From the NCBI RefSeq assembly GCF_001677475.2, contig NZ_CP015229.1: DNA of 64,000 bases; one strand, written 5' to 3'. Shown here piece by piece: positions 50,028 to 51,119 of this stretch. The stretch is from Escherichia coli (GTDB lineage: Bacteria > Pseudomonadota > Gammaproteobacteria > Enterobacterales > Enterobacteriaceae). Within the stretch, counting starts at the first letter, position 1, and each line of letters starts with the position of its first letter. The notes beneath the pieces were generated by a model, which was not told the origin of the DNA, did not search any database, and saw only the letters and a list, made by a program, of their open reading frames with translations. A program made the translations under genes and the position numbers.

Positions 50028-51119
50028 TTAGAACTGGTAAACCAGACCCAGAGCTACGATGTCATCAGTGTTGATGCCTGCAGCGCGGGTGAACTGGTTG
50101 TCGTCCAGCAGGTTGATTTTGTAGTCAACATAGGTGGACATGTTTTTGTTGAAGTAGTAAGTAGCACCAACATCAACATATTTCAGGATATCTTCGTCGT
50201 CGTAGCCACGACCCAGGTTTTTACCTTTAGACTGCAGGTAAGCCAAGGACGGACGCAGACCGAAGTCGAACTGGTACTGAGCAACAGCTTCGAAGTTCTG
50301 TGCTTTGTTCGCCCAACCCAGGGAACCTACGCGAGTTGCGTTGTAGGTCTGGGTGTACTGAGCAGCCAGGTAGATGTTGTTAGCGTCGTATTTCAGACCA
50401 CCAGTGTAGGTTTCAGCACGGTCGCCGTTACCGATGTACAGCGGGCTGTTCTGATCATCAGTACGTTTGGAGCTGGAGATCGCACCACCGATACCGAAGC
50501 CTTCGTAATCATAAGTGATAGATCCGCCAACGCCGTCGCCGTTCTGACGCAGAGCACCACGACCGTTGTTGGTCATGCCTTCGCCGCTTACGCTGCCGTT
50601 TTTACCCTGGTACTGAACAGCAAAGTTCAGGCCGTCAACCAGACCGAAGAAGTCAGTGTTACGGTAGGTCGCGAAGCCGTTACCACGCTGCTGCATGAAG
50701 TTGTCAGAACCGTAAGTGTCGCCACCGAATTCTGGCAGTACGTCGGTCCAGGAAGTTACGTCGTAAACTACGCCGTAGTTACGACCGTAGTCGAAAGAAC
50801 CTACATCCTGGAATTTCAGACCTGCGAATGCCACACGGGTCCAGGAGTTGTTTTCGTTTTCAGCGCTGTTGCCCTGGATCTGATATTCCCACTGGCCGTA
50901 ACCGGTCAGCTGGTCAGTAACCTGAGTTTCACCTTTGAAGCCAAGACGCATGTAGGTCTGGTCGCCATCTACAGACTTGTCGTCAGAGAAATAGTGCAGG
51001 CCGTCTACTTTACCGTACAGATCTAATTTGTTGCCGTCTTTGTTGTAAACTTCAGCAGCGTTTGCTGCGCCTGCTACCAGCAGAGCTGGGACCAGGAGGG
51101 ACAGTACTTTAACTTTCAT
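50028..51119 (-). CDS. ompC: outer membrane porin OmpC
   Basis: 363 aa; [21 protein letters not shown] signal; ends ...LVYQF; terminator hairpin at about 49988-50010. Confidence 0.96.

Follow-up and report, generated by a model that had tools for sequence, protein, structure and literature searches.

Is the ompC gene of this Escherichia coli strain an ordinary allele of a variable porin, or does its length record a recent event in the strain? The gene lies in a 64,000-nt stretch of contig NZ_CP015229.1 (hereafter the window, whose positions are used throughout). An earlier note had read a 363-amino-acid OmpC precursor there, had given 367 residues for K-12, and had proposed that the difference lay in surface loops, marked the strain, and might bear on phage receptor specificity. 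Both lengths were right: the reading frame runs from ATG to stop over 363 codons (Table 1), and ompC of MG1655 (b2215) is 1104 nt, or 367 amino acids, in its annotated RefSeq record. Here, we report that the locus very probably holds a functional, chromosomal, normally regulated gene with a standard natural combination of E. coli OmpC surface loops.

Table 1. Features of the ompC locus, in window positions (substitutions in K-12 precursor numbering)
Feature	Position	Strand	Description
ompC coding sequence	50028..51119	-	ATG-to-stop ORF; 363-aa precursor, 342-aa mature porin
Signal peptide, codons 1-21	51057..51119	-	Identical to K-12 residue for residue
L1 (SDDKSVD)	50967..50987	-	N47D, D49S vs K-12; L1 common to UTI89, O157, 536, and CFT073
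L3 constriction loop	50700..50777	-	Amino acids as in K-12; 4 synonymous changes only
L4	50547..50603	-	19 residues vs 23 in K-12; Beck type c6; N176S, P177V, F182_G185del (junction ambiguous in window 50574-50582), V186M, D192G vs K-12
L5	50421..50465	-	15 residues; Beck a6; A226D, T229S, A230P, A231L vs K-12; same as UTI89, EC93, and O157
L7 (NLGRGYDDE)	50193..50219	-	Beck type a, same as K-12; without the GVIN/VING insertion of O157-type OmpC
L8 and next residue	50061..50111	-	D350A, N357D vs K-12; CFT073/A35H type (RAAGINTD-D)
Putative 3' recombinant segment, gene nt ~875-1092	50028..50245	-	Nearer IAI39/SMS-3-5/CE10-type alleles (97.8-98.1%)
Terminator-like hairpin and T-run	49990..50009	-	Starts 19 nt past the ompC stop codon
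60-nt block upstream of ompC	51239..51298	-	Identical to K-12
micF antisense sRNA gene	51453..51546	+	Divergent from ompC, intact; Rfam RF00033, 116 bits (gathering threshold, 79), model positions 1-94 of 94

Gene identity and genomic setting

The product scored 762 bits against the NCBIfam model for porin OmpC (NF007841; cutoff, 484) and fell below the NCBIfam cutoffs for OmpF (493 bits; cutoff, 583) and PhoE (466 bits; cutoff, 599). Residues 27 to 363 matched Pfam PF00267 (Porin_1) over profile positions 1 to 337 of 337 (474 bits; cutoff, 23.7). The mature protein was aligned end to end with two OmpC chains of solved structure, 9wcb and 2j1n (E values, 1e-217 to 1e-222). All barrel strands aligned gap-free at the sequence level, as would be expected of the 16-stranded, trimer-forming OmpC barrel, and solved OmpC structures at 95 to 98% identity span the entire mature protein. 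The terminal phenylalanine of porins has a role in outer-membrane assembly; here, the C terminus is intact (...LVYQF), so that the Sec signal peptide and the C-terminal aromatic residue expected of an assembled outer membrane protein are both present.

Gene order (alkB-ada-apbE-ompC-micF-rcsD) is the same as in K-12, with apbE (ftp) on one side of ompC and the divergent micF-rcsD on the other, and the window as a whole is collinear with K-12 positions 2,270,673 to 2,325,746, bar one insertion far from ompC. Draft assembly GCA_033692955.1 is identical to the window base for base across 7,092 nt, and GCA_016118665.1 differs from it by 1 nt. NCBI lists the exact protein as "porin OmpC [Escherichia coli]" (ANO90013.1 and others), with 45 contigs carrying it. 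A source outside E. coli (e.g., Shigella) was considered and dropped because the exact protein and locus are present in E. coli assemblies.

Upstream of ompC, positions −170 to −1 are those of K-12 throughout. The conserved 60-nt block, which we take to be the three OmpR-binding boxes C1 to C3, is part of the same flank (Table 1). Two small changes were seen in this flank: a window-specific C>T at 51300, 2 nt upstream of the putative OmpR-box block, and a 1-nt deletion in the T-run at the micF 3' end (51546), both relative to K-12, UTI89, and IAI39. The micF match still reaches its 116 bits, and both changes are probably neutral. With the barrel and the L3 eyelet unchanged, ordinary OmpC pore function would be expected, and with the regulatory region unchanged as well, OmpR/MicF control would be expected to operate as in K-12.

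Differences from K-12 OmpC

Global pairwise alignment with K-12 OmpC, the check that had been suggested, gave one 4-residue gap and 12 substitutions, so the two proteins are not identical. The gap lies at the center of extracellular loop L4, and these 4 absent residues account for the entire length difference. It corresponds to K-12 precursor residues G181 to S184 or, equivalently, F182 to G185 (G181_S184del/F182_G185del); at this point, K-12 GEGFTSGVTNNGRD is aligned with a 10-residue stretch in the window.

Strand and loop boundaries were taken from Beck et al. 2016 (S1 Fig; PMC5056734) and rebuild the mature K-12 sequence exactly. On these boundaries, L1, L4, L5, and L8 contain all 4 residues of the gap and 11 of the 12 substitutions, which bears out the proposal that the surface loops are what differ; the remaining substitution comes immediately after L8. 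With loops accounting for 34% of the mature protein, this concentration of substitutions is greater than expected by chance (binomial p, 6e-5). No amino acid differs from K-12 in the signal peptide, in L2, L3 (the constriction loop), L6, or L7, or in any barrel strand.

Non-synonymous and synonymous changes did not differ significantly in their split between loop and non-loop codons (Fisher test, p = 0.10), because synonymous changes are enriched in the loop-coding blocks too. Such enrichment is expected if recombination swaps whole loop cassettes, and a dN/dS claim is therefore withheld.

Allele class and frequency

Compared with the loop catalog of Beck et al. (S2 Table), the window carries exact matches to L4-c6, L5-a6, and L7-a (L7 entry, NLGRGYDD). 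That survey covered 2,707 E. coli OmpC proteins (more than 220 distinct) with 33 L4, 30 L5, and 13 L7 variants, and it lists the combination c6/a6/a for UTI89, APEC O1, S88, IHE3034, and UM146 (PMC5056734). The same 363-aa length and c6 L4 also occur together in UTI89, APEC O1, S88, IHE3034, ATCC 11775, and others.

The closest named allele is that of UTI89, APEC O1, S88, and IHE3034 (WP_000865556.1), which has the same 363-aa precursor and 342-aa mature protein, with L1 to L7 and all strands identical to the window. UTI89 ompC is also 1092 nt long and shares 98.4% nucleotide identity with the window (99.2% across the first 880 nt). The 17 nucleotide differences comprise 14 synonymous and 3 non-synonymous changes, the latter in 2 codons. 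They give D346A and N353D (precursor numbering; A346 and D353 in the window), in or next to L8, and this region holds the sole two amino acid differences from UTI89 OmpC.

K-12 OmpC (P06996/b2215; PDB 2J1N) shares with the window its locus, regulation, signal peptide, barrel, L2, L3, L6, and L7 but has an L4 that is 4 residues longer and includes the T4 contacts P177 and F182; residues in L1, L5, and L8 also differ, bringing the substitutions to 12 in total. O157:H7 OmpC (EC869 type c2/a6/e; sequence type of PDB 9WCB) has the same L1 and L5 as the window and an L4 that is one residue off (E in place of G188 in the window); unlike the window, it has a VING insertion and a G>N change in L7, an A/V difference in strand beta10, and a K-12-type L8. 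CFT073/A35H OmpC (PDB 2XE1 type) shares L8 (RAAGINTD-D) and L1 with the window, whereas its long b1 L4, a11 L5, and c-type L7 do not match; it has 354 aa in mature form and is resistant to CdiA-EC536.

Among 5,426 complete RefSeq E. coli genomes, the L4 coding query found an ungapped match at ≥90% identity in about 3,683 (about two-thirds). A further 957 genomes (~18% of 5,426), many of them K-12 derivatives, fell in the 80 to 90% identity band, which is where the K-12-type 133-nt span falls. Short L4 is thus the majority state in E. coli, with K-12 carrying a minority, longer loop. Total length gave a different frequency. In 59 systematically sampled full-length matches from 5,425 genomes, ompC ranged from 1092 to 1131 nt, with 1104 nt the commonest length and 1092 nt in 4 of the 59; from this systematic sample, a 1092-nt ompC is estimated to occur in about 5 to 7% of complete E. 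coli genomes. What makes a 363-aa total uncommon is solely that one allele combines short forms of all three length-variable loops (L4, L5, and L7). No identical nucleotide allele was found in the 5,426 complete RefSeq E. coli genomes, the nearest being 98.4% identical.

The suggestion that the allele marks the strain therefore holds in part: the exact allele is rare, but length is a weak marker, as the short L4 is the majority form. To speak of a deletion is K-12-centered wording for a standing, recombining polymorphism, and no recent event in the strain is involved.

Mosaic structure of ompC

The locus was compared in sliding windows with UTI89 (B2), IAI39 (F/D-type), and K-12 (A). Gene nucleotides 1 to 880 are 99.2% identical to UTI89, 94.9% to K-12, and 89.1% to IAI39; the pattern is reversed over nucleotides 881 to 1092, which are 98.1% identical to IAI39 and 95.3% to UTI89. 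Of the 17 positions that differ from UTI89, the last ~220 nt of the gene hold 11. The best matches to the 3' 223 nt (97.8%) are IAI39, SMS-3-5, CE10, ST648, and "strain 20"; the ompC flank, too, has strain 20 and TCM3e1 among its closest matches. On this three-reference description, the allele appears to have been built by intragenic recombination, with ~880 UTI89-like nucleotides at the 5' end and ~210 IAI39-like nucleotides at the 3' end. This mosaic fits the published picture, in which OmpC loops are modular and occur in many combinations (Beck et al. 2016; PMC5056734) and ompC has undergone "mosaic evolution" through local recombination (bioRxiv 10.1101/2021.09.21.461324).

The surrounding part of the chromosome is unusually diverse, mainly at synonymous sites. 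Adjoining it, apbE/ftp (48861-49916, minus strand) reaches at best 95.6% identity among 5,421 complete E. coli genomes, most being at 90 to 95%. It is ~94% identical to the copies of K-12, UTI89, and IAI39 (themselves 3 to 4% apart), with only 6 to 8 amino acid differences, and represents deep, mostly synonymous diversity flanking ompC. A single foreign import of apbE together with the ompC 3' end was considered and rejected, since apbE is 3 to 4% polymorphic among E. coli references and its divergence is mostly synonymous; the divergent tract also lacks a sharp boundary at ompC and was treated as a high-diversity region. In ada (47723-48787), a stretch of ~300 nt (~48436-48735) is identical to UTI89, ~10% off IAI39, and ~8% off K-12, and it is probably another recombination patch at the ompC locus.

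Alternative explanations

Other readings of the allele were weighed. Had an in-frame deletion arisen recently in this lineage alone, under phage or immune pressure, the gene would be a specific strain marker, in keeping with its absence as an identical allele from the complete genomes (best, 98.4%) and with the presence of the exact protein on only 45 contigs. Such an event is nonetheless very unlikely: UTI89, APEC O1, S88, IHE3034, ATCC 11775, and others have the same c6 L4 and 363-aa length, a short L4 is found in about two-thirds of complete genomes, and the rarity comes from nucleotide differences from UTI89 that are concentrated at the 3' end, not from the indel. We also hold it improbable, if slightly less so, that the mosaic was imported from unsampled Escherichia diversity and gives a receptor surface with phage or CDI specificity beyond the alleles tested so far. 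That reading rests on the joining of UTI89-type L1 to L7 to a CFT073/IAI39-type L8, on the ≥4.4% divergence of the adjoining apbE, and on the lack of a close relative among complete genomes.

An antibiotic-selected porin change that lowers outer membrane permeability has in its favor D192G, which the window shares with a resistant ST361 isolate in which the CANWARD study (PMC8826793) lists it as an "OmpC alteration". Against this, L3 and all barrel strands have the amino acids of K-12, D192G sits toward the outside of L4 and is a feature of c6, a common natural loop type, the reading frame and the −170 to −1 region are intact, and antibiotic-naive reference strains have the same loops; we consider such selection highly unlikely here. 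For a sequencing or assembly artifact, or a decaying gene, nothing speaks beyond the length difference itself. That difference is in frame and identical in independent public assemblies, and start, signal peptide, C-terminal YQF, terminator, and promoter region are all intact, which leaves this reading with next to no credibility.

Predicted receptor properties

The altered part of the protein is the porin's outward face, where phages, contact-dependent inhibition (CDI) toxins, and antibodies bind. T4 uses a binding surface formed by OmpC loops 1, 4, and 5 (PMC9603124, PMC11758799). In K-12 L4, P177 and F182 are key contacts of the T4 long tail fiber, and P177V or F182A alone stops infection by wild-type T4 (the reviews PMC9603124 and PMC11758799, reporting Suga et al. 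2021). An earlier paper from the same group mentioned the L4 phenylalanine as "unpublished data" and described T4 as unable to use O157 OmpC (PMC5221442); OmpC loops are not treated in the T4 papers PMC6957217 and PMC13043661. The window has neither K-12 contact, with V at position 177 and F182 in the gap, and the relevance to phages that had been raised as a possibility is thus backed by published mutagenesis.

Because of V177 and the absence of F182, the allele is predicted not to serve as a receptor for wild-type T4 in the OmpC-dependent mode. The prediction draws as well on the likeness to O157 OmpC, unusable by T4, with which the window shares L1 and L5 and from which its L4 is one residue apart. 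The allele may be usable by gp37 mutants shifted to O157 OmpC. It does not by itself settle the T4 sensitivity of the strain, for which lipopolysaccharide (LPS) and O-antigen matter: T4 also adsorbs via terminal-glucose LPS independently of OmpC, and O-antigen blocks T4 (PMC5221442).

For phage PP01, GVIN in L7 is essential and, when inserted into K-12 OmpC, sufficient for infection (PMC12892980). L7 of the window is of the K-12 type (NLGRGYDDE), and because it is without GVIN, no PP01 receptor function is predicted, despite the presence in L5 of S225-P226-L227, residues that cross-link to gp38.

In the CDI system, CdiA-EC536 recognizes UTI89 OmpC efficiently as its receptor, with the determinants in L4 and L5 and no effect of L7 or L8 grafts; the permissive L4/L5 types for class II CdiA are those of UTI89, F11, A33H, EC93, and 536, and OmpC is partnered with OmpF in heterotrimers (PMC5056734). 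As L4 and L5 of the window are identical to those of UTI89 OmpC, the allele is predicted to be recognized by class II CdiA of E. coli 536 and UTI89, given a compatible OmpF. The two L8 residues at which the window departs from UTI89 (A346 and D353) would be irrelevant to CdiA-EC536, judging from chimeras made in another backbone.

The gene, its loop types, their combination, mosaic evolution, and loop function have all been published already, and public databases contain the exact protein. The specific addition is a natural allele that unites P177V with the loss of F182, each of which blocks T4 by mutagenesis, and this was implicit in what is known of O157 OmpC.

Other features of the window

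An ~11-kb insertion relative to K-12 (15619-26592) lies directly 3' of the tRNA-Pro(GGG) gene proL (15540-15616). Its best E. coli matches are annotated as integrase, DNA primase, major capsid protein, small terminase, SSB, and Icd-like proteins, and coverage of at least 80% was reached by only 5 of 5,426 complete genomes, none above 95.6% identity. From its gene set and size, it looks like a capsid-forming phage satellite (cf-PICI-like). The autotransporter gene yejO (26713-29304, minus strand) is an intact 863-aa ORF, whereas IS5K interrupts the K-12 copy, leaving a pseudogene.

Complete RefSeq E. coli genomes match window positions 1 to 15000 at 98.6% at most and positions 40000 to 50027 at 97.7% at most; the best matches to these core stretches are the phylogroup D/F-type strains N3, PCN033, IAI39, SMS-3-5, and strain 20. 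The lineage seems to be unrepresented among complete genomes, though identical draft assemblies exist.

Significance

At L4, it is K-12 that is atypical of E. coli, and the "4-aa deletion" called against it is the majority L4 state. When antimicrobial resistance surveys record departures from K-12 OmpC (e.g., D192G) as "porin alterations", they can mistake natural loop types for resistance mutations. F182_R195delinsMTTNGRDDVFE, also listed as an "OmpC alteration" (PMC8826793), is the natural d-type L4 when set against the S2 Table of Beck et al. The ompC allele described here is a calibration point and opens no new question. For phage therapy, phage typing, and CDI, it gives testable predictions: the porin would be a non-receptor for wild-type T4 and PP01 and a probable receptor for class II CdiA.
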